From NCBI RefSeq assembly GCF_024502345.1, contig NZ_JALDNN010000001.1: DNA of 64,000 bases; one strand, 5' to 3'. Every line of letters begins with the position of its first letter. Position 1 is the first letter of the stretch. This stretch comes from Escherichia coli. GTDB lineage: Bacteria > Pseudomonadota > Gammaproteobacteria > Enterobacterales > Enterobacteriaceae. The notes beneath the pieces are model-generated. The model had not been told where the DNA came from, did no database searches, and saw only the letters and a program-made list of their open reading frames with translations. The position numbers and the translations under genes were made by a program. Shown here piece by piece: positions 1 to 34,110 of this stretch.

Positions 1-114
1 AGTTATTTACGCTCGCTGCAATCCTGGGACCACCATTTCCCTGGATTTGAACACGAAACTGAAGGGACTGAAATTATTGACGGTATTTACCACGTTATGT
101 GCGTGAAAGCGTAA
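1..114 (+). CDS. adiA: 3' end of biodegradative arginine decarboxylase (partial, start lies outside window)
   Basis: Frame ending at TAA 112-114 translates to ...DGIYHVMCVKA; sits upstream of adiY-adiC in the same orientation as the known adiA-adiY-adiC order. Confidence 0.6.
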   Translation, partial: SYLRSLQSWDHHFPGFEHETEGTEIIDGIYHVMCVKA

Positions 115-231
115 CCACTATTCCGCTGAAGGCGTAATTGTTTAAATAACATTACGCCGCCTGGCCTTAGGCCTTTTGAGTATGGCAACGTTTTCATAAA
201 AATTGCTGCAAACAAAAATGTCATACTTTTT

Positions 232-258
232 GCGCGGCCCCACCCCGCGCTTTTTTTT
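232..258 (+). terminator. Rho-independent terminator after adiA
   Basis: GC stem gcgcgg/ccgcgc followed by an 8-T run. Confidence 0.55.
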
Positions 259-438
259 GCCTGTTATTTATCCTGTAAAAAAATATGTACATGAGAAATT
301 ACTATAAAAATTTGTAATATTAGTAAAACTCGTTATTTTTATGCATGTTTATATTCATCATACAATTATATAACCATTTCCCGGTATCGCTTTGCTTTAG
401 CGAGAACTGGTCTTTTATTCGCACTCAGGAGTACATGT

Positions 439-1200
439 ATGAGGATTTGCAGCGACCAACCTTGTATTGTTTTATTGACTGAAAAAGATGTCTGGATAAG
501 GGTGAATGGGAAAGAACCTATTAGCCTTAAAGCTAACCATATGGCGTTATTAAATTGTGAAAATAATATTATCGACGTCTCCTCTCTTAACAACACTTTG
601 GTTGCTCATATTAGTCACGACATCATCAAAGATTACCTCCGGTTTCTGAATAAAGATCTCTCGCAAATACCAGTATGGCAACGTAGCGCTACGCCCATAC
701 TCACCCTGCCATGCCTGACGCCAGACGTCTTTCGCGTTGCCGCGCAACACAGCATGATGCCCGCAGAAACTGAGTCAGAAAAGGAACGAACACGCGCATT
801 ATTATTCACGGTGCTATCCCGTTTTCTCGACAGTAAAAAATTCCTTTCATTAATGATGTATATGTTACGTAATTGTGTAAGTGACAGCGTTTATCAAATT
901 ATTGAAAGCGATATTCACAAAGACTGGAATCTTAGTATGGTAGCCAGTTGTTTATGTCTTAGCCCAAGTCTGTTAAAGAAAAAGCTGAAAAGCGAAAACA
1001 CCAGTTATAGCCAAATAATCACCACCTGCCGCATGCGTTATGCCGTAAATGAATTAATGATGGACGGTAAAAATATCTCTCAGGTATCACAGTCCTGCGG
1101 CTACAACAGTACGTCGTACTTTATTTCTGTCTTTAAAGACTTCTACGGTATGACGCCGCTGCATTATGTTAGTCAGCACAGAGAACGCACTGTCGCCTGA
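439..1200 (+). CDS. adiY: AraC-family transcriptional activator of the arginine decarboxylase system
   Basis: 253-aa ORF with C-terminal AraC-type HTH region; position between adiA and adiC. Confidence 0.9.
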   Translation: MRICSDQPCIVLLTEKDVWIRVNGKEPISLKANHMALLNCENNIIDVSSLNNTLVAHISHDIIKDYLRFLNKDLSQIPVWQRSATPILTLPCLTPDVFRVAAQHSMMPAETESEKERTRALLFTVLSRFLDSKKFLSLMMYMLRNCVSDSVYQIIESDIHKDWNLSMVASCLCLSPSLLKKKLKSENTSYSQIITTCRMRYAVNELMMDGKNISQVSQSCGYNSTSYFISVFKDFYGMTPLHYVSQHRERTVA

Positions 1201-1336
1201 TTTTTAACCTTAACGAAGAGCTATATTAATAACGGCATCAGCGATAACCCGGTCGATAATAATTCAACTATCGAATGCAGGCGTATGATATGACGTAATT
1301 TATTGTCACGAAGCTCGCCTTCGCAGGAGTTTAATT

Positions 1337-2674
1337 ATGTCTTCGGATGCTGATGCTCACAAAGTGGGCTTAATCCCCGTCACCCTGATGGTGTCGGGGA
1401 ATATTATGGGGTCAGGTGTTTTTCTGTTACCTGCAAACCTGGCCTCTACTGGCGGGATTGCCATTTATGGATGGTTGGTGACGATTATCGGTGCACTGGG
1501 GCTCTCGATGGTATACGCCAAAATGTCGTTCCTCGACCCAAGTCCTGGTGGTTCTTACGCTTACGCCCGCCGCTGCTTTGGCCCGTTTCTCGGTTATCAA
1601 ACCAACGTCCTCTACTGGCTGGCCTGCTGGATCGGCAATATCGCCATGGTGGTCATTGGCGTAGGATATTTAAGTTACTTCTTCCCGATTCTGAAAGATC
1701 CATTGGTATTAACCATCACCTGCGTCGTGGTGCTGTGGATCTTCGTCCTGCTGAACATTGTCGGTCCGAAAATGATCACCCGTGTGCAGGCCGTTGCCAC
1801 CGTGCTGGCGCTGATCCCCATCGTCGGGATTGCCGTATTTGGCTGGTTCTGGTTTCGTGGTGAAACCTATATGGCGGCATGGAACGTCAGCGGCCTGGGC
1901 ACCTTCGGTGCAATTCAAAGTACCCTTAACGTTACGCTGTGGTCGTTCATCGGTGTGGAAAGTGCCTCCGTTGCCGCAGGTGTGGTGAAAAACCCGAAAC
2001 GCAACGTCCCTATAGCCACCATTGGTGGGGTATTGATTGCCGCCGTTTGCTATGTGCTCTCCACCACCGCGATTATGGGGATGATCCCTAATGCCGCACT
2101 GCGCGTTTCTGCCTCGCCATTCGGTGATGCCGCACGGATGGCGTTGGGTGACACCGCCGGGGCCATCGTTTCCTTCTGCGCAGCTGCGGGTTGCTTAGGT
2201 TCACTGGGCGGCTGGACATTGCTGGCGGGTCAAACGGCGAAAGCCGCTGCCGATGACGGACTGTTCCCACCGATTTTTGCCCGTGTAAATAAAGCGGGTA
2301 CGCCAGTGGCGGGGCTGATTATCGTCGGTATTTTGATGACCATCTTCCAGCTCAGCAGCATTTCACCAAACGCGACCAAAGAATTCGGTCTGGTTTCTTC
2401 CGTCTCGGTCATCTTTACACTGGTGCCATATCTTTACACCTGTGCGGCGTTACTGCTGCTCGGACACGGTCACTTTGGTAAAGCACGCCCGGCATATCTG
2501 GCAGTTACTACCATTGCCTTCCTCTACTGCATCTGGGCCGTGGTGGGGTCCGGGGCGAAAGAGGTTATGTGGTCATTTGTCACCCTGATGGTCATCACCG
2601 CCATGTATGCGCTGAATTACAACCGGCTGCATAAAAACCCGTATCCCTTAGATGCACCAATAAGCAAAGATTAA
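1337..2674 (+). CDS. adiC: Arginine:agmatine antiporter (APC superfamily)
   Basis: 445-aa polytopic membrane ORF; recognised N-terminus and length. Confidence 0.93.
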
Positions 2675-2698
2675 TTCCCCTTAATCCAGCAAAGATAA

Positions 2699-2738
2699 AA
2701 GCCAACCTTAAGAACTTAAGGTTGGCTTAATTTTGCTT
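2699..2738 (+). terminator. Hairpin terminator after adiC
   Basis: Inverted repeat gccaaccttaag/cttaaggttggc followed by a T-rich tract. Confidence 0.5.
2715..2731 (+). promoter_or_regulatory. BasR/PmrA box upstream of eptA
   Basis: Direct repeat CTTAAG-N5-CTTAAT about 47 bp upstream of the eptA ATG. Confidence 0.55.
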
Positions 2739-2777
2739 TGCGAGCATATGCGCACTTTGTTCGATGGAAACACCGTG

Positions 2778-4421
2778 ATGTTGAAGCGCCTACTAAAAAG
2801 ACCCTCTTTGAATTTACTCGCCTGGCTATTGTTGGCCGCTTTTTATATCTCTATCTGCCTGAATATTGCCTTTTTTAAACAGGTGTTGCAGGCGCTGCCG
2901 CTGGACTCGCTGCATACCGTACTGGTTTTCTTGTCGATGCCGGTCGTCGCCTTCAGCGTGATTAATATTGTCCTGACACTAAGCTCTTTCTTATGGCTTA
3001 ATCGACCGCTGGCCTGCCTGTTTATTCTGGTTGGCGCGGCTGCACAATATTTCATAATGACTTACGGCATCGTCATCGACCGCTCGATGATTGCCAATAT
3101 TATTGATACCACTCCGGCAGAAAGCTATGCGCTGATGACACCGCAAATGTTATTAACGCTGGGATTCAGCGGCGTGCTTGCTGCGCTGATTGCCTGCTGG
3201 ATTAAAATCAAACCTGCCACCTCGCGTCTGCGCAGTGTTCTTTTCCGTGGAGCCAATATTCTGGTTTCTGTACTGCTGATTTTGCTGGTAGCCGCACTAT
3301 TTTATAAAGACTACGCCTCGTTGTTCCGCAACAACAAAGAGCTGGTGAAGTCCTTAAGCCCCTCTAACAGCATTGTTGCCAGCTGGTCATGGTACTCCCA
3401 TCAGCGACTGGCAAATCTGCCGCTGGTGCGAATTGGTGAAGACGCGCACCGCAACCCGTTAATGCAGAACGAAAAACGTAAAAATTTGACCATCCTGATT
3501 GTCGGCGAAACCTCGCGGGCGGAGAACTTCTCCCTCAACGGCTACCCGCGTGAAACTAACCCGCGGCTGGCGAAAGATAACGTGGTCTATTTCCCTAATA
3601 CCGCATCTTGCGGCACGGCAACGGCAGTTTCAGTACCGTGCATGTTCTCGGATATGCCGCGAGAGCACTACAAAGAAGAGCTGGCACAGCACCAGGAAGG
3701 CGTGCTGGATATCATTCAGCGAGCGGGCATCAACGTGCTGTGGAATGACAACGATGGCGGCTGTAAAGGTGCCTGCGACCGCGTGCCTCACCAGAACGTC
3801 ACCGCGCTGAATCTGCCTGATCAGTGCATCAACGGCGAATGCTATGACGAAGTGCTGTTCCACGGGCTGGAAGAGTACATCAATAACCTGCAGGGTGATG
3901 GCGTGATTGTCTTACACACCATCGGCAGCCACGGTCCGACCTATTACAACCGCTATCCGCCGCAGTTCAGGAAATTTACCCCAACCTGCGACACCAATGA
4001 GATCCAGACCTGTACCAAAGAGCAACTGGTGAACACTTACGACAACACGCTGGTTTACGTCGACTATATTGTTGATAAAGCGATTAATCTGCTGAAAGAA
4101 CATCAGGATAAATTTACCACCAGCCTGGTTTATCTTTCTGACCACGGTGAATCGTTAGGTGAAAATGGCATCTATCTGCACGGTCTGCCTTATGCCATCG
4201 CCCCGGATAGCCAAAAACAGGTGCCGATGCTGCTGTGGCTGTCGGAGGATTATCAAAAACGGTATCAGGTTGACCAGAACTGCCTGCAAAAACAGGCGCA
4301 AACGCAACACTATTCACAAGACAATTTATTCTCCACGCTATTGGGATTAACTGGCGTTGAGACGAAGTATTACCAGGCTGCGGATGATATTCTGCAAACT
4401 TGCAGGAGAGTGAGTGAATGA
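2778..4421 (+). CDS. eptA: Lipid A phosphoethanolamine transferase
   Basis: 547-aa product from ATG 2778 (tool ORF begins 15 codons earlier); N-terminal membrane region plus sulfatase-like domain; overlaps basR start by 4 nt. Confidence 0.92.
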
Positions 4422-5086
4422 AAATTCTGATTGTTGAAGACGATACGCTGTTATTGCAGGGACTGATTCTGGCGGCGCAAACCGAAGGCTACGCGTGCGA
4501 TGGCGTGACAACCGCGCGGATGGCGGAACAAAGCCTTGAGGCCGGTCATTACAGCCTGGTGGTACTGGATTTAGGGTTACCCGACGAAGATGGACTGCAT
4601 TTTCTCGCCCGTATCCGGCAGAAAAAATATACCCTGCCGGTACTGATCCTCACCGCTCGCGATACGCTGACCGACAAAATCGCCGGGCTGGATGTCGGTG
4701 CCGATGACTATCTGGTGAAGCCTTTTGCGCTGGAAGAGTTACATGCCCGTATCCGCGCCCTGCTACGACGCCATAATAATCAGGGCGAAAGTGAGCTGAT
4801 TGTTGGCAATCTGACGCTGAATATGGGTCGCCGTCAGGTATGGATGGGCGATGAAGAGTTGATTCTGACGCCCAAAGAATATGCTCTGCTGTCACGGTTA
4901 ATGCTCAAAGCAGGCAGTCCGGTGCATCGGGAAATTCTCTACAACGACATCTATAACTGGGACAATGAACCCTCGACCAACACCCTGGAAGTGCATATCC
5001 ACAATCTGCGCGACAAAGTGGGCAAAGCCCGTATCCGCACCGTGCGCGGCTTTGGCTATATGCTTGTCGCGAATGAGGAAAACTAA
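4418..5086 (+). CDS. basR: Two-component response regulator (OmpR family)
   Basis: 222-aa ORF with receiver domain and winged-helix C-terminus. Confidence 0.95.
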
Positions 5087-5095
5087 TTGAATCTG

Positions 5096-6187
5096 ATGCG
5101 TTTTCTGCGCCGACCAATATCGCTGCGCCAACGGCTGATATTGACCATCGGGGCCATTTTGTTGGTGTTTGAGCTGATCAGCGTCTTCTGGCTATGGCAT
5201 GAAAGTACCGAGCAGATTCAGCTGTTTGAGCAGGCGCTACGCGACAATCGCAACAACGATCGCCACATCATGCGTGAGATCCGCGAGGCGGTCGCCAGCC
5301 TGATTGTCCCCGGCGTCTTTATGGTCAGCCTGACGCTATTTATCTGCTATCAGGCGGTACGCCGCATCACCCGCCCGCTGGCGGAGCTGCAAAAAGAGCT
5401 GGAAGCGCGCACCGCCGACAACTTAACGCCCATTGCCATTCACAGCGCCACCCTCGAAATCGAAGCGGTGGTTTCAGCGTTAAACGATCTGGTCAGTCGC
5501 CTGACCAGCACGCTGGATAACGAAAGGTTGTTTACCGCTGACGTCGCGCACGAACTGCGAACGCCACTGGCGGGGGTACGTTTGCATCTGGAACTGCTGG
5601 CGAAAACGCATCACATTGATGTAGCACCGTTAGTGGCACGGCTTGATCAGATGATGGAGAGCGTCTCCCAGCTGCTGCAACTGGCGCGTGCCGGACAGTC
5701 ATTTTCTTCCGGTAATTATCAACATGTAAAACTGCTGGAAGATGTCATTCTCCCCTCGTATGACGAACTCAGTACCATGCTCGACCAGCGACAGCAAACC
5801 CTGCTATTGCCAGAGAGCACCGCCGACATCACCGTTCAGGGTGATGCAACCCTGCTGCGGATGTTATTGCGAAACCTGGTAGAAAACGCCCATCGTTACA
5901 GCCCGCAAGGCAGCAACATTATGATTAAGCTGCAAGAAGATGGCGGAGCGGTCATGGCAGTTGAAGATGAAGGACCAGGTATTGATGAGAGTAAATGCGG
6001 GGAGTTGAGTAAAGCGTTTGTACGTATGGACAGCCGTTATGGCGGGATTGGTCTGGGGTTAAGTATTGTCAGCCGCATTACACAGTTGCATCACGGGCAG
6101 TTTTTCCTGCAAAACCGGCAAGAGACTTCCGGCACGCGGGCCTGGGTACGGCTGAAGAAAGATCAGAACGTGGCAAACCAGATATAA
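5096..6187 (+). CDS. basS: Two-component sensor histidine kinase
   Basis: HisKA H-box (ADVAHELRTPL) and ATPase motifs; start at ATG 5096 or TTG 5087. Confidence 0.92.
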   Translation: MRFLRRPISLRQRLILTIGAILLVFELISVFWLWHESTEQIQLFEQALRDNRNNDRHIMREIREAVASLIVPGVFMVSLTLFICYQAVRRITRPLAELQKELEARTADNLTPIAIHSATLEIEAVVSALNDLVSRLTSTLDNERLFTADVAHELRTPLAGVRLHLELLAKTHHIDVAPLVARLDQMMESVSQLLQLARAGQSFSSGNYQHVKLLEDVILPSYDELSTMLDQRQQTLLLPESTADITVQGDATLLRMLLRNLVENAHRYSPQGSNIMIKLQEDGGAVMAVEDEGPGIDESKCGELSKAFVRMDSRYGGIGLGLSIVSRITQLHHGQFFLQNRQETSGTRAWVRLKKDQNVANQI

Positions 6188-6252
6188 AGAAAGCTGCTGA
6201 CCACCAGCACGCTGAACACGGTAGTTAAACTTTCATAAACACGGTTTTTCAT
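6163..6252 (-). CDS. pmrR: 29-aa small membrane protein PmrR, antisense-overlapping the basS 3' end
   Basis: Manual translation gives MKNRVYESLTTVFSVLVVSSFLYIWFATF; 25-nt convergent overlap with basS. Confidence 0.7.
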   Translation of the reverse strand: MKNRVYESLTTVFSVLVVSSFLYIWFATF

Positions 6253-6296
6253 TGCACTCTCCTCCGTTAACCTGGAGGAGAGTATGCGCGTCAGAG

Positions 6297-6313
6297 ATTA
6301 AGTGAACCTTAAG
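6297..6313 (-). promoter_or_regulatory. BasR/PmrA box upstream of pmrR
   Basis: On the minus strand reads CTTAAG-N5-CTTAAT, about 45 bp upstream of the pmrR ATG. Confidence 0.5.
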
Positions 6314-6322
6314 AGTTCAATT

Positions 6323-6351
6323 GGCCTGATAAGACAGCGTTACATCAGGCC
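6323..6351. repeat. REP-like palindrome between basS/pmrR and proP
   Basis: ggcctgat...atcaggcc inverted repeat. Confidence 0.5.
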
Positions 6352-6363
6352 ATCCGTTTCAGC

Positions 6364-7866
6364 TTATTCATCAATTCGCGGATGTTGCTGCACCAGGCGG
6401 GTACGTTTCGCCTGCAAATCGGCAATCTCGTGGTCAATATCATCGATTTTCTGCTCGATATTATCGTAATGCTCGACGAGAATTTCCTTCGCTTCCTGTA
6501 TATCTGACGCCGCCGGTGTTGCACCTTTCAACGGACGATTTGCCGTCTCTTTCATGGTTACGCCGGTGATTAAACCAACCACCGCCACTACCATCAGGTA
6601 ATAGGCTGGCATCATCAGATTCTGCGAGCTTTCGACCAGCCAGGCCGCCAGTGTTGGCGTCAGACCGGCAACCAGCACCGAAATATTAAATGCCGCCGCC
6701 AGCGCGCTGTAACGGATATGCGTCGGGAACATCGCTGGCAAGGTAGAAGCCATAACGCCCGTAAAGCAGTTAAGGATCACCGCCAGCATCAGTAACCCGG
6801 CAAAAATCAGGCCGATGACGTTACTGTTAATCAGAATAAACGCCGGGATCGCCAACACAAACAGTGCAACACTACCAAGTAGCACAAACGGACGACGGCC
6901 AAAACGGTCACTCAGCAAGCCCATCACCGGCTGGACAAACAGCATACCGATCATAATGGCGATAATAATCAGCACCCCGTGGTCTTCGGAGTAATGCAGG
7001 TTATGCGACAAATAACTCGGCATATAGGTCAGCAACATGTAGTAAGTCACGTTGGTGGCAATTACCAGACCAATACATGTCAACAGGCTGCGCCAGTATT
7101 TAGTGGCAATCTCTTTAAACGAGACTTTCGGGCCATCCTGCAAACCTTCGCGGTCGCCCTGTTCCAGTTTATCAACATGCTGCTGGAACGCCGGAGTTTC
7201 TTCCAGCGCATGGCGCAGGTAAAGCCCGATAATCCCTAACGGCAGAGCAATAAAGAACGGAATACGCCAGCCCCAGTCGAGGAAGTTCGCTTCGCCGACA
7301 ATGGTCGAAATTAACACCACCACGCCCGCACCCAGCACAAACCCGGCAATAGAACCGAAGTCCAGCCAGCTGCCCATAAAGCCACGTTTACGGTCAGGGG
7401 AGTATTCCGCAACAAATATCGACGCCCCGGTATATTCACCGCCGACCGAGAAACCTTGTGCCATCTTACAGATCAACAGCAGAATCGGTGCCCAAATACC
7501 AATCGTGTCGTAGGACGGTATTAAGCCAATACAGAACGTACTGATCGACATAATCACAATAGTGATAGCGAGGATCTTCTGGCGACCATATTTATCGCCC
7601 AACATACCAAAGAAGAGTCCGCCAAGCGGTCGAATCAGAAAGGGAACGGAGAAAGTGGCAAGTGCAGCAACCATCTGCACGCTGGGGTCAGCCCCCGGGA
7701 AAAAAACTTTACCTAATGCGTAAGCAACAAAACCATAAACACCAAAATCAAACCATTCCATTGCATTACCCAGTGATGCTGCGGTAATGGCTTTACGCAG
7801 TTTACCGTCATCAATAATGGTGACATCACGAAGGGTAATTGGTTTTACTTTTTTCCTTTTCAGCAT
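6364..7866 (-). CDS. proP: Proline/glycine betaine:H+ symporter (MFS osmosensor)
   Basis: 500-aa product from internal start MLKRKKVKPITLRD; MFS topology with C-terminal coiled-coil tail. Confidence 0.95.
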   Translation of the reverse strand: MLKRKKVKPITLRDVTIIDDGKLRKAITAASLGNAMEWFDFGVYGFVAYALGKVFFPGADPSVQMVAALATFSVPFLIRPLGGLFFGMLGDKYGRQKILAITIVIMSISTFCIGLIPSYDTIGIWAPILLLICKMAQGFSVGGEYTGASIFVAEYSPDRKRGFMGSWLDFGSIAGFVLGAGVVVLISTIVGEANFLDWGWRIPFFIALPLGIIGLYLRHALEETPAFQQHVDKLEQGDREGLQDGPKVSFKEIATKYWRSLLTCIGLVIATNVTYYMLLTYMPSYLSHNLHYSEDHGVLIIIAIMIGMLFVQPVMGLLSDRFGRRPFVLLGSVALFVLAIPAFILINSNVIGLIFAGLLMLAVILNCFTGVMASTLPAMFPTHIRYSALAAAFNISVLVAGLTPTLAAWLVESSQNLMMPAYYLMVVAVVGLITGVTMKETANRPLKGATPAASDIQEAKEILVEHYDNIEQKIDDIDHEIADLQAKRTRLVQQHPRIDE

Positions 7867-31962: not shown

Positions 31963-34110
31963 ATGAAAAAAGTCGTCACGGTTTGCCCCTATTGCGCATC
32001 AGGTTGCAAAATCAACCTGGTCGTCGATAACGGCAAAATCGTCCGGGCGGAGGCAGCGCAGGGGAAAACCAACCAGGGTACCCTGTGTCTGAAGGGTTAT
32101 TATGGCTGGGATTTCATTAACGATACCCAGATCCTGACCCCGCGCCTGAAAACCCCCATGATCCGTCGCCAGCGTGGCGGCAAACTCGAACCTGTTTCCT
32201 GGGATGAGGCACTGAATTACGTTGCCGAGCGCCTGAGCGCCATCAAAGAGAAGTACGGTCCGGATGCCATCCAGACGACCGGCTCCTCGCGTGGTACGGG
32301 TAACGAAACCAACTATGTAATGCAAAAATTTGCGCGCGCCGTTATTGGTACCAATAACGTTGACTGCTGCGCTCGTGTCTGACACGGCCCATCGGTTGCA
32401 GGTCTGCACCAATCGGTCGGTAATGGCGCAATGAGCAATGCTATTAACGAAATTGATAATACCGATTTAGTGTTCGTTTTCGGGTACAACCCGGCGGATT
32501 CCCACCCAATCGTGGCGAATCACGTAATTAACGCTAAACGTAACGGGGCGAAAATTATCGTCTGCGATCCGCGCAAAATTGAAACCGCGCGCATTGCTGA
32601 CATGCACATTGCACTGAAAAACGGCTCGAACATCGCGCTGTTGAATGCGATGGGCCATGTCATTATTGAAGAAAATCTGTATGACAAAGCGTTCGTCGCT
32701 TCACGTACAGAAGGCTTTGAAGAGTATCGTAAAATCGTTGAAGGCTACACACCGGAGTCGGTTGAAGATATCACCGGCGTCAGCGCCAGTGAGATTCGTC
32801 AGGCGGCACGGATGTATGCCCAGGCGAAAAGCGCCGCCATCCTGTGGGGCATGGGTGTAACCCAGTTCTACCAGGGCGTGGAAACCGTGCGTTCTCTGAC
32901 CAGCCTCGCGATGCTGACCGGTAACCTCGGTAAGCCGTATGCGGGTGTAAACCCGGTTCGTGGTCAGAACAACGTGCAGGGTGCCTGCGATATGGGCGCG
33001 CTGCCGGATACGTATCCGGGATACCAGTACGTGAAAGATCCGGCTAACCGCGAGAAATTCGCCAAAGCCTGGGGCGTGGAAAGCCTGCCTGCTCATACCG
33101 GTTATCGCATCAGCGAGCTGCCGCACCGCGCAGCGCATGGCGAAGTGCGTGCCGCGTACATTATGGGCGAAGATCCGCTACAAACTGACGCGGAGCTGTC
33201 GGCAGTACGTAAAGCCTTTGAAGATCTGGAACTGGTCATCGTTCAGGACATCTTTATGACCAAAACCGCGTCGGCGGCGGATGTTATTTTACCGTCAACG
33301 TCGTGGGGCGAGCATGAAGGCGTGTTTACTGCGGCTGACCGTGGCTTCCAGCGTTTCTTCAAAGCAGTTGAACCGAAATGGGATCTGAAAACGGACTGGC
33401 AAATCATCAGTGAAATCGCCACCCGTATGGGTTATCCGATGCACTACAACAACACCCAGGAGATCTGGGATGAGTTGCGTCATCTGTGCCCGGATTTCTA
33501 CGGTGCGACTTACGAGAAAATGGGCGAACTGGGCTTCATTCAGTGGCCTTGCCGCGATACTTCAGATGCCGATCAGGGGACTTCTTATCTGTTTAAAGAG
33601 AAGTTTGATACCCCGAACGGTCTGGCGCAGTTCTTCACCTGCGACTGGGTAGCGCCAATCGACAAACTCACCGACGAGTACCCGATGGTACTGTCAACGG
33701 TGCGTGAAGTTGGTCACTACTCTTGCCGTTCGATGACCGGTAACTGTGCGGCACTGGCGGCGCTGGCTGATGAACCTGGCTACGCACAAATCAATACCGA
33801 AGACGCCAAACGTCTGGGTATTGAAGATGAGGCATTGGTTTGGGTGCACTCGCGTAAAGGCAAAATTATCACCCGTGCGCAGGTCAGCGATCGTCCGAAC
33901 AAAGGAGCGATTTACATGACCTACCAGTGGTGGATTGGTGCCTGTAACGAGCTGGTTACCGAAAACTTAAGCCCGATTACGAAAACGCCGGAATACAAAT
34001 ACTGCGCCGTGCGCGTCGAGCCGATCGCCGATCAGCGCGCCGCCGAGCAGTACGTGATTGACGAGTACAACAAGTTGAAAACTCGCCTGCGCGAAGCGGC
34101 ACTGGCGTAA
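31963..34110 (+). CDS. fdhF: Formate dehydrogenase H, selenocysteine-containing molybdoenzyme
   Basis: Two tool ORFs (31963..32382 and 32431..34110) are one frame joined through in-frame TGA at 32380-32382 (codon 140); N-terminal Cys cluster CPYCASGC. Confidence 0.93.
32380..32425 (+). other. UGA selenocysteine codon plus downstream SECIS hairpin
   Basis: In-frame TGA immediately followed by cacggcccatcggttgcaggtctgcaccaatcggtcgg, which can fold as a stem-loop. Confidence 0.7.

Follow-up and report, generated by a model that had tools for sequence, protein, structure and literature searches.

Small membrane peptides and the pmrR gene

MgrB, which acts on PhoQ, and MgtS, which acts on MgtA, are, like PmrR, very small single-pass membrane peptides that are induced by two-component systems, and each of the three modulates, after translation, a membrane protein that belongs to the same stress response (PMC11429745). 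There is no sequence relationship between PmrR and the other two peptides, and the target of PmrR is an enzyme, LpxT, rather than a sensor kinase. Furthermore, the feedback of PmrR on PmrB is indirect and operates via LPS charge, and, unlike the case for MgrB and MgtS, the pmrR gene is physically joined to the 3' end of the kinase gene. Direct binding of PmrR to LpxT and an Fe3+ feedback loop were reportedly described in Salmonella by Kato et al. (2012, Mol Cell 47:897).

Both the annotation of pmrR and the part it plays in lipid A remodelling and in resistance to polymyxin and bile are already known and published. Tian et al. (2021) drew the same gene overlap and PmrA box for E. coli (PMC8129183), and deletion of the PmrA box in the pmrA-constitutive strain WD101 produces polymyxin sensitivity, with resistance restored by deletion of lpxT or by ectopic pmrR (PMC8129183). 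In E. coli K-12, Ribo-RET reads at the pmrR start codon increase 5-fold in low Mg2+, PmrR-6xHis fractionates with membranes, and the phenotype of a pmrR deletion is complemented by the wild-type gene and not by an ATG>TAA mutant (PMC11429745). In E. coli B lines adapted to Fe(III), the pmrR mRNA also rises, together with those of eptA, arn, and basR (PMC13405929). The mRNA rise and the start-codon reads already speak against the refuting case named in the original prediction, a lack of transcript or translation over 6163..6252. In E. coli, BasR responds to low Mg2+ only indirectly. A YFP reporter of the pmrR upstream region showed no significant low-Mg2+ induction in K-12, and the low-Mg2+ growth phenotypes of both pmrR deletion and pmrR overexpression are independent of lpxT, suggesting that LpxT may not be the sole PmrR target (PMC11429745).

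The window analyzed here is a stretch of 64,000 nucleotides of E. coli DNA (contig NZ_JALDNN010000001.1), and the features under discussion are collected in Table 1. The minus-strand ORF was predicted to encode a 29-aa hydrophobic peptide, which its translation bears out, and to be too short for the ORF track; the mechanical list carries it with its ATG start. PGAP names exactly this interval 'LpxT activity modulator PmrR', under which the peptide is publicly known along with PMRR_ECOLI. The NCBIfam equivalog NF033224 (PmrR) matches the peptide with 72.7 bits (cutoff 30, E = 1.5e-20), with residues 1-29 aligned to positions 1-29 of the 29-position profile, and the orthologues of Salmonella and Citrobacter are assigned to Pfam PF28106 (PmrR). 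The peptide shows the PmrR pattern of about 29 aa, one hydrophobic helix, and an F21-x3-W25 core. Of the 5426 complete E. coli genomes in RefSeq, 5408 have pmrR annotated at the same location; the annotation is also present in O157:H7 and BL21, and the K-12 gene is b4703. The initial identification of a BasR/PmrA-dependent gene that encodes a small membrane peptide, converges with basS, and has a PmrA box of its own is therefore correct (PGAP, b4703, NF033224, PMC8129183). The best explanation, held with a probability of roughly 95%, is that pmrR is a bona fide protein-coding gene whose product is a 29-residue single-pass inner-membrane peptide that is induced by BasR and inhibits LpxT.

Table 1. 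Coordinates of features at the pmrR locus and of the comparator box at eptA, in window positions
Feature	Coordinates	Strand	Basis and remarks
basS/pmrB, sensor kinase, 366 aa (PGAP model)	5087..6187	+	ORF list, PGAP
pmrR coding sequence, 29 aa plus stop, ATG start, product MKNRVYESLTTVFSVLVVSSFLYIWFATF	6163..6252	minus	ORF list, translation
Convergent pmrR/basS 3'-end coding overlap, 25 nt	6163..6187		ORF list, PGAP; contains A/T SNP at 6167
Rfam RF02052 'STnc630' match (PmrA box, hairpin, whole pmrR ORF)	6156..6321	minus	178.5 bits vs gathering score 55
Conserved hairpin, ACUCUCCUCC / loop AGGUUAAC / GGAGGAGAGU	6256..6283	minus	Fold, covariation
pmrR Shine-Dalgarno (SD), GGAGGAG	6259..6265	minus	Sequence; GGAGG core ends 8 nt before ATG
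Predicted PmrA-dependent transcription start	6272..6274	minus	Box/-10 geometry
Predicted -10 hexamer, CATACT, exactly 10 nt 3' of PmrA box	6281..6286	minus	Conservation at box+10
PmrA (BasR) box, CTTAAG-GTTCA-CTTAAT, CTTAAGGTTCACTTAAT	6297..6313	minus	Motif search, comparison, published deletion
REP-like palindrome, GGCCTGAT...ATCAGGCC	6323..6351		Fold; between proP stop and PmrA box
proP, co-directional, upstream of pmrR, possible read-through source	6364..7866	minus	PGAP
Second box, CTTAAGGTTGGCTTAAT, comparator, eptA-basRS operon promoter	2715..2731	+	Motif search

The window carries an O157:H7-like allele. The SNP at 6167 alters both proteins, giving PmrR a C-terminal F rather than Y (residue 29), the only difference from the K-12/BL21 peptide, and PmrB an N in place of Y; among 5407 matching E. 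coli records, 1861 share the identical 57-nt stretch that spans it. The Salmonella PmrR (MKTRIYESLTTVFSLLIVSSFLYVWVSSY) is 69% identical to the peptide of the window and is encoded at the same site between proP and pmrB. Its PmrA box (CTTAAGGTTGACTTAAT), the 10-nt spacing to the -10 hexamer, and the CTCCTCC/GGAGGAG hairpin are as in the window. In contrast, the overlap with pmrB is 7 nt in Salmonella, the REP-like palindrome is absent, and the proP stop lies about 24 nt from the box. The palindrome in the window probably serves proP and/or basS as a 3'-end structure.

The PmrA box promoter and its conservation

The PmrA box of eptA (pmrC) and arnB (pbgP) is a direct repeat with the consensus CTTAAG-N5-xTTAAT, and the pmrR box fits this published definition (PMC3973317). 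A perfect CTTAAG-N5-CTTAAT repeat had been placed about 45 bp upstream of the ORF on the same strand, and this claim holds, with 44 nt (6296..6253) separating the box from the ATG. The motif CTTAAK-N5-CTTAAK has two matches in the window against 0.00 expected (100 shuffles). The other match precedes eptA, a known BasR-activated operon, and is followed 10 nt later by GAGCAT, with the eptA ATG at 2778. The two promoters share the same geometry of box, 10 nt, -10-like hexamer, and short leader, and on sequence grounds the pmrR box is a perfect one that lies at the activating position. The assignment of the -10 hexamer is supported by its conservation, as an A at position 2 and a T at position 6 occur together at box+10 in 53 of 54 distinct sequences and in 0-1 at offsets 8, 9, and 11. 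A sigma-70 consensus scan of 5900..6600 returned no promoter, as would be expected of an activator-dependent promoter that has no -35 element. Searchable E. coli transcription start supplements from Cappable-seq (PMC4782308) and SMRT-Cappable-seq (PMC6131387) contain no entry for pmrR, basS, proP, or the expected coordinates.

The conservation of the locus was probed in 80 pmrB loci from other species, together with Salmonella, C. freundii, and E. fergusonii. A PmrR-like ORF is present in 55 of the 80 loci, all of which have a box (0-1 mismatch) 40-46 nt upstream, while none of the 25 loci lacking the ORF has a comparable box, one of them containing only a T-rich match with one mismatch. In these 55 loci and the three additional species the ORF is 28-33 aa long with invariant F21 and W25; among 32 diverse peptides, M1, F21, and W25 are the only invariant residues. 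The peptides have diverged to 21-38% identity across genera, yet ORF length, start, stop, and F21/W25 are retained. A purine-rich SD is conserved in all loci, and in the window as well as at 58 other loci the gene directly follows pmrB/basS and converges with it. Judged by sequence comparison, the unit that is conserved (59 loci, about 15 enterobacterial genera) is the box, 10 nt, the -10 hexamer, a covarying SD hairpin, and an ORF of 28–33 aa directly downstream of pmrB. The gene upstream of pmrR encodes ProP in Escherichia and is an ORF of about 670-715 aa in most other genera, confirmed as UvrB at one Klebsiella locus. The PmrR counterparts of Klebsiella, Raoultella, Kluyvera, and Phytobacter are without names in databases; MQKINFREYLAVATALVIIVAFFHQWVLTF is an example of the Klebsiella-type peptide.

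These features suggest the following mechanism. First, phosphorylated BasR (PmrA) would bind the repeat at 6297..6313, in the -35 position 10 nt upstream of CATACT, and recruit RNA polymerase to start near 6273, as expected from the geometry. Next, a leader of about 21 nt with a strong GGAGG ribosome-binding site would allow the PmrR peptide to be made, its translation and membrane association having been demonstrated in E. coli K-12. PmrR would then bind and inhibit LpxT, which adds the second phosphate at lipid A position 1; binding has reportedly been demonstrated in Salmonella, and the support from E. coli is genetic. With LpxT blocked, EptA would add phosphoethanolamine at this position, reducing the negative charge of the surface, raising polymyxin resistance, and lowering deoxycholate resistance. 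Finally, in Salmonella the lowered charge reportedly also reduces Fe3+ binding, providing negative feedback on PmrB.

The hairpin over the ribosome-binding site

A distinction between the pmrR and eptA promoters is the hairpin at pmrR, for which eptA has no equivalent. The 3' arm (6265..6256) consists of the SD and the spacer, and the 5' arm (6283..6274) is an anti-SD located between the -10 hexamer and the predicted transcription start, so that the roughly 21-nt 5' UTR predicted from that start would lack the anti-SD arm. The hairpin folds with a centroid energy of -18.6 kcal/mol (z = -3.1). In the cross-locus alignment 82.8% of stem cells are paired, compared with 36-51% in slid registers, and compensatory cells number 51, where shuffles give 16.6 (0/500). 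The sequence of the hairpin is close to a palindrome and can fold on either strand; the two strands are almost equal in canonical cells (483 vs 485) and differ little in MFE (−16.6 vs −15.4 kcal/mol, p = 0.047, calculated on non-independent sequences). The inner seven stem pairs contain 35 G.U and 7 A.C cells, and thus the wobble leans toward the pmrR-sense strand. The hairpin was also considered as a canonical intrinsic terminator, and this identity was rejected, as the stem is present and a U-tract is found on neither strand; after the stem the minus strand continues with GCAAUGAAAAAC and the plus strand with AUGCGCGUCAG, and a terminator scan did not report 6256..6283.

It is tentatively proposed, at somewhat less than even odds, that the hairpin functions as a translational insulator embedded in the promoter. 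Transcripts started by BasR would lack the anti-SD arm and be translated, whereas read-through transcripts would retain it and keep the pmrR ribosome-binding site locked, and the same palindrome would also lie in the 3' UTR of eptA-basRS. The source of read-through in this proposal is proP in Escherichia and Salmonella, and uvrB in Klebsiella and many others. If the insulator proposal is correct, the palindrome in the eptA-basRS 3' UTR and the pmrR promoter would jointly explain the need for +103 to +126 nt beyond pmrB that Xu et al. observed for colistin resistance. As a corollary, a PmrR counterpart that has no name yet and is driven by the same kind of promoter would be present in Klebsiella, Raoultella, Kluyvera, Kosakonia, Phytobacter, and several Enterobacter species.

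Convergence with pmrB and the STnc630 entry

The last 25 nt of basS were predicted to be overlapped convergently by pmrR, which the coordinates bear out. It was further suggested that this overlap could couple basS 3' processing to pmrR expression, an idea that finds no support in that form. Across genera the length of the coding overlap varies between -8 and +66 nt, and given this variation it is incidental, a by-product of tight packing; a conserved overlap stretch of the kind expected for cis-antisense control is not found, since 21 of the 59 loci have a coding overlap of zero or less. What is conserved is the convergence itself and a hairpin common to both transcripts, and as the downstream region has a published effect on the level of pmrB mRNA (PMC8004244), some cis interplay between the pmrR region and pmrB may exist.

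The likeliest alternative, which takes up this coupling idea, is that the locus not only encodes PmrR but also regulates by virtue of its convergence, either through cis-antisense action of the pmrR transcript or polymerase collision at the basS 3' end, or through the 6256..6283 palindrome acting as a stabilizing 3' hairpin on the eptA-basRS mRNA. Since the distance of pmrR from the pmrB stop stays between -8 and +66 nt throughout, the transcripts, as opposed to the coding sequences, are likely to overlap, and the near-palindromic hairpin is available to both. Xu et al. (2021) showed that pmrB(BL21) confers colistin resistance only with at least 103 bp of downstream DNA, and pmrB mRNA is about 315-fold lower with the +86 than with the +126 construct (PMC8004244). 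BL21 is collinear with the window, and +86 corresponds to 6273, inside the hairpin loop, +103 to 6290, where the hairpin and the -10 are restored, and +126 to 6313, the outer edge of the PmrA box. However, these endpoints fit equally well the loss of a functional plasmid-borne pmrR promoter, and the half-life of pmrB mRNA is alike in the +86 and +126 constructs, with the ORF-only construct giving the highest mRNA level (PMC8004244). The unconserved length of the coding overlap, the lean of the inner seven pairs toward the pmrR-sense strand, and the lack of a U-tract beside the hairpin also argue against a regulatory role for the convergence, which is considered unlikely, though it deserves some weight.

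A second alternative is that the locus specifies a non-coding small RNA in which the ORF is incidental. Rfam files RF02052 (STnc630) as 'Gene; sRNA' at the same locus and strand as pmrR, and the match in the window (6321..6156) is full length, covering model positions 1-166 of 166, with a consensus structure that contains the SD hairpin. However, model positions 9-25 are the PmrA box, indicating that RF02052 includes promoter DNA and that its 5' boundary is not a transcript end, and the model encloses a conserved, translated ORF whose length, start and stop, and F21/W25 are kept despite 21-38% identity. Initiating ribosomes are seen at the ATG, the tagged peptide is found in the membrane, and the failure of the ATG>TAA mutant to complement refutes an exclusively non-coding reading, which is thus very improbable. 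STnc630 is not mentioned in the searchable papers. The curated Rfam "sRNA" STnc630 is the pmrR mRNA plus its promoter.

Lastly, there is the view that chance alone produced the ORF and the box in an intergenic region or 3' UTR. The small size of the ORF (29 codons, with 6.5 kb containing 95 ORFs of 20 aa or more) might speak for this view, which is rejected as scarcely credible given that no such box is expected in 64 kb, that box and ORF co-occur perfectly over 80 loci, that the family match has the E value given above, and that experiments support pmrR (PMC8129183, PMC11429745, PMC13405929).

With pmrR taken as a BasR-induced protein-coding gene, the value added by this analysis is comparative, in that the box, the −10, the SD hairpin, and the ORF are conserved and the basS overlap is not. 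In clinically important genera such as Klebsiella, a counterpart without a name occupies the equivalent position behind the same PmrA-box promoter; the NCBIfam model misses it, and this counterpart could matter for reading colistin-resistance mutations at the pmrB 3' end. Additionally, the puzzling effect of the "pmrB 3'-downstream region" on colistin resistance maps base-for-base on the pmrR hairpin, −10, and PmrA box, which suggests a simple explanation for it.

pmrR and its promoter in the window

The original prediction placed a small peptide gene on the minus strand in convergent overlap with basS (pmrB); translation and the open reading frame (ORF) list confirm the ORF, and the position of the basS stop codon confirms the 25-nt overlap. 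Its identification as the BasR-dependent pmrR is borne out as well. Across its 321 nt, the region matches E. coli O157:H7 chromosomes at 100% identity; of 5426 complete E. coli genomes, 5408 contain it, and PGAP labels the ORF there "pmrR: LpxT activity modulator PmrR". The K-12 counterpart is b4703, "small regulatory membrane protein PmrR", and BL21(DE3) also has pmrR. Against NF033224, the NCBIfam equivalog, the peptide aligns end to end and scores 72.7 bits (cutoff 30), and in public collections both the F29 and the Y29 alleles are named PmrR or PMRR_ECOLI. The F29 allele reflects a single A at position 6167, where K-12, BL21, and other Escherichia carry T; because the two coding sequences overlap, this one base alters both PmrR (Y29F) and, six residues from its C-terminus, PmrB (Y>N). 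This allele is common, as an identical 57-mer across the site is found in 1861 of 5407 matching E. coli records.

The PmrA box predicted for pmrR itself is likewise present. The CTTAAK-N5-CTTAAK pattern has two matches in the 64-kb window (0.00 expected in shuffles), the second of which precedes eptA. Exactly 10 nt past the box, 53 of 54 distinct sequences have a hexamer whose second base is A and whose sixth is T (GACACT, GATACT, GAAACT, CAAACT, and TACTCT in other loci), while the same combination at offsets of 8, 9, and 11 nt is found in 0, 0, and 1 sequences. The eptA promoter has the same layout, with a box, 10 nt, and GAGCAT. This arrangement is expected for class II activation by OmpR/PhoB-family regulators, and its geometry predicts that pmrR transcription starts near 6273 with a leader of ~21 nt. 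Upstream of the eptA box, extra half-site-like hexamers (2670..2712) may be additional BasR sites. All of the elements originally described are therefore correct and are not due to chance.

Features of the pmrR region and other window elements (window coordinates unless a locus is named; gene order from PGAP)
Feature	Position	Strand	Remarks
Half-site-like ATTAAT-N4-CTTAAT	2670..2685	+	upstream of eptA box
Half-site-like CTTAAG	2707..2712	+	2 nt before eptA box
Second PmrA-type box	2715..2731	+	precedes eptA
eptA	2778..4421		
basR	4418..5086		
basS (pmrB)	5087..6187	+	end also in ORF list
pmrR	6252..6163	-	also in mechanical ORF list; translates to MKNRVYESLTTVFSVLVVSSFLYIWFATF then stop
pmrR/basS overlap	6163..6187		
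Terminator-like hairpin	6195..6209	-	UGCUG-GUGGU-CAGCA then GCUUUCUUUAU
Shine-Dalgarno hairpin	6283..6256	-	ACUCUCCUCC / AGGUUAAC / GGAGGAGAGU; −18.6 kcal/mol, z = −3.1
Predicted −10 hexamer CATACT	6286..6281	-	10 nt after PmrA box
PmrA box CTTAAGGTTCACTTAAT	6313..6297	-	44 nt between box and ATG
Rfam RF02052 "STnc630"	6321..6156	-	typed sRNA; full-length match, 178.5 bits
REP-like palindrome	6323..6351		GGCCTGAT...ATCAGGCC; between proP stop and PmrA box
proP	7866..6364	-	
+34 from pmrB stop	6221		inside pmrR ORF; colistin MIC 0.5
+86	6273		hairpin loop, without anti-SD arm, −10, or box; MIC 0.5
+103	6290		whole hairpin and −10, just past −10 hexamer; MIC 4
+126	6313		last base (outer edge) of PmrA box; MIC 16
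naRNA4 (REP-type), two	11988, 12088	+	Rfam
naRNA4 (REP-type), four	14640, 34898, 35011, 45615	-	Rfam
SECIS_2 selenocysteine insertion element	32375..32429	+	Rfam
sraL sRNA	52925..53065	+	Rfam
PmrR-like ORF, K. pneumoniae	3550..3642 (locus L019)	-	
pmrR ORF, E. fergusonii	3078..3167 (locus L085)	-	ORF, box, and hairpin intact

PmrR was reportedly defined in a Salmonella study by Kato et al. in 2012, and in E. coli pmrR is already known and experimentally characterised. Tian et al. 2021 (PMC8129183) illustrate the same overlap for E. coli and place a PmrA box in the pmrR promoter. Deletion of that box alone in a pmrA-constitutive strain gave polymyxin B sensitivity and deoxycholate resistance, and polymyxin B resistance was restored by additional deletion of lpxT or by ectopic pmrR. 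The window box also fits the CTTAAG-N5-xTTAAT definition of experimentally verified PmrA boxes (PMC3973317). In Vellappan et al. (PMC11429745), low Mg2+ increased Ribo-RET reads 5-fold at the start of pmrR, PmrR-6xHis was recovered in the membrane fraction, and a pmrR deletion impaired growth in low Mg2+, a defect complemented by pmrR and not by an ATG>TAA version. In that study the growth effects in low Mg2+ were lpxT-independent, and a YFP reporter of the pmrR upstream region was not induced by low Mg2+. When E. coli B is adapted to Fe(III), mRNA of pmrR goes up along with that of eptA, arnABC, ugd, and basR (PMC13405929). An absence of transcript or translation, which was to count against the original prediction, is thus contradicted by published mRNA and Ribo-RET data.

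Conservation and annotation of the pmrR module

To compare genera, 80 pmrB loci were fetched from species-representative genomes with BasS as anchor. A hydrophobic ORF of 28–33 aa lies antisense at the pmrB 3' end in 55 of these (Escherichia, Citrobacter, Klebsiella, Raoultella, Kluyvera, Kosakonia, Phytobacter, Pseudocitrobacter, Trabulsiella, Yokenella, Pluralibacter, several "Enterobacter", and a Pantoea). In all 55, a PmrA box with at most one mismatch to YTTAAK-N5-YTTAAK ends 40–46 nt upstream of the ATG. No comparable box was found within 300 nt in the 25 loci lacking the ORF, one of which has only a T-rich 1-mismatch match; these include Pectobacterium, Rahnella, Rouxiella, Ewingella, Serratia, Chimaeribacter, Superficieibacter, and Pseudescherichia. 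Salmonella, C. freundii, and E. fergusonii, reached via PmrB homologues, carry the same module. The peptide sequences differ greatly, with identity to the window PmrR as low as 21–38%, and only M1, F21, and W25 are invariant.

It was originally suggested that the coding overlap couples basS 3' processing to pmrR expression. The overlap is 25 nt in most Escherichia, 66 in E. fergusonii, 7 in Salmonella and C. freundii, 22 in Klebsiella, 4 in Raoultella, 57 in Pseudocitrobacter, 0 in several genera, and −6 in Kluyvera. Consequently, the overlap is not a conserved feature, and its conservation lends the suggested coupling no support; it is the adjacency and convergence of pmrR and pmrB that are conserved. 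The upstream co-directional neighbour is proP in Escherichia, Salmonella, and C. freundii, while in most other genera (loci L008-L062) the eptA-pmrAB-pmrR block borders a co-directional ORF of ~670–715 aa beyond the box that is not proP, confirmed in one Klebsiella locus as uvrB (TIGR00631, 1106 bits). As this neighbour varies, pmrR travels with pmrB and not with the gene on its other side. In many loci just 20–45 nt separate the end of this neighbour from the box. Salmonella lacks the REP-like palindrome, with the proP stop ~24 nt from the box and no separate proP terminator.

Several database entries do not reflect this module. The RF02052 model takes in the PmrA box (positions 9–25), the Shine-Dalgarno (SD) hairpin, and the entire pmrR ORF, so Rfam STnc630, entered as an enterobacterial sRNA, in fact represents the pmrR mRNA together with its promoter. 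PmrR-like ORFs of 30 aa with the same box, −10, and hairpin lie at the pmrB 3' end in loci L010-L062, from Klebsiella, Raoultella (L017), Kluyvera (L056), Kosakonia, Phytobacter (L029), Pseudocitrobacter, and others. Six non-Escherichia counterparts (K. oxytoca-type, Pseudocitrobacter, Phytobacter, Enterobacter ENT03, Pantoea A4, and Yokenella) score 0–18 bits against NF033224, under the cutoff. Public collections list the peptides of Klebsiella, Raoultella, Kluyvera, and Phytobacter only as "hypothetical protein", and no discussion of PmrR in Klebsiella was found in the literature searched. In E. fergusonii, PmrB is extended to 380 aa and runs antisense through most of pmrR, which is missing from the gene list of the assembly. 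No tRNA genes were found in the window.

A conserved hairpin and the region downstream of pmrB

The SD sequence forms the 3' arm of a hairpin between the −10 hexamer and the ATG, which is also seen in Salmonella and in the RF02052 consensus structure. In an alignment of 53 distinct sequences (11-pair stem, columns 30-40 and 51-61), the stem is 82.8% paired compared with 36–51% in slid registers, and contains 51 compensatory cells compared with 16.6 in shuffles (0 of 500 reach 51); one pair varies among CG (18), AU (17), GC (6), and GU (6). Conservation of the hairpin, with compensatory changes, extends over about 15 genera. Canonical cells over the whole stem number 483 on one strand and 485 on the other, and the difference in minimum free energy between strands is marginal; in the inner seven pairs, the pmrR sense has 35 G·U wobbles and 7 A·C mismatches. 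A separate terminator-like hairpin, also part of the STnc630 consensus structure, lies within the pmrR coding sequence, where termination would yield a non-stop mRNA.

The 5' (anti-SD) arm sits between the −10 hexamer and the predicted start, and BasR-initiated mRNA should therefore lack it. Read-through RNA from the co-directional upstream gene would carry this arm, and the pmrB 3' UTR would carry its complement. The SD is predicted to be more accessible in the short RNA (0.35) than in the read-through RNA (0.10), and the difference has this direction in 42 of 51 sequences. Candidate functions of the hairpin are translational insulation from read-through, or pmrB 3'-UTR structure.

A published deletion series bears on this region. 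Xu et al. 2021 (PMC8004244) found that colistin resistance from pmrB(BL21) depends on how much downstream DNA is included, the highest MIC being reached at +126 or more. Shortening the construct from +126 to +86 lowered pmrB mRNA about 315-fold, and the half-life did not differ. Because BL21 differs from the window by two SNPs and no indels, the two are collinear and these endpoints can be converted to window positions. The text consulted names pmrR and draws no link between the endpoints and the pmrR promoter; from sequence position, we infer that the endpoints map onto the pmrR hairpin, −10, and box. This mapping is equally compatible with a need for a functional pmrR promoter and with a cis role of the hairpin. 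Together, the conserved hairpin shared by the convergent transcripts and this one published deletion series pose a modest, testable regulatory question.
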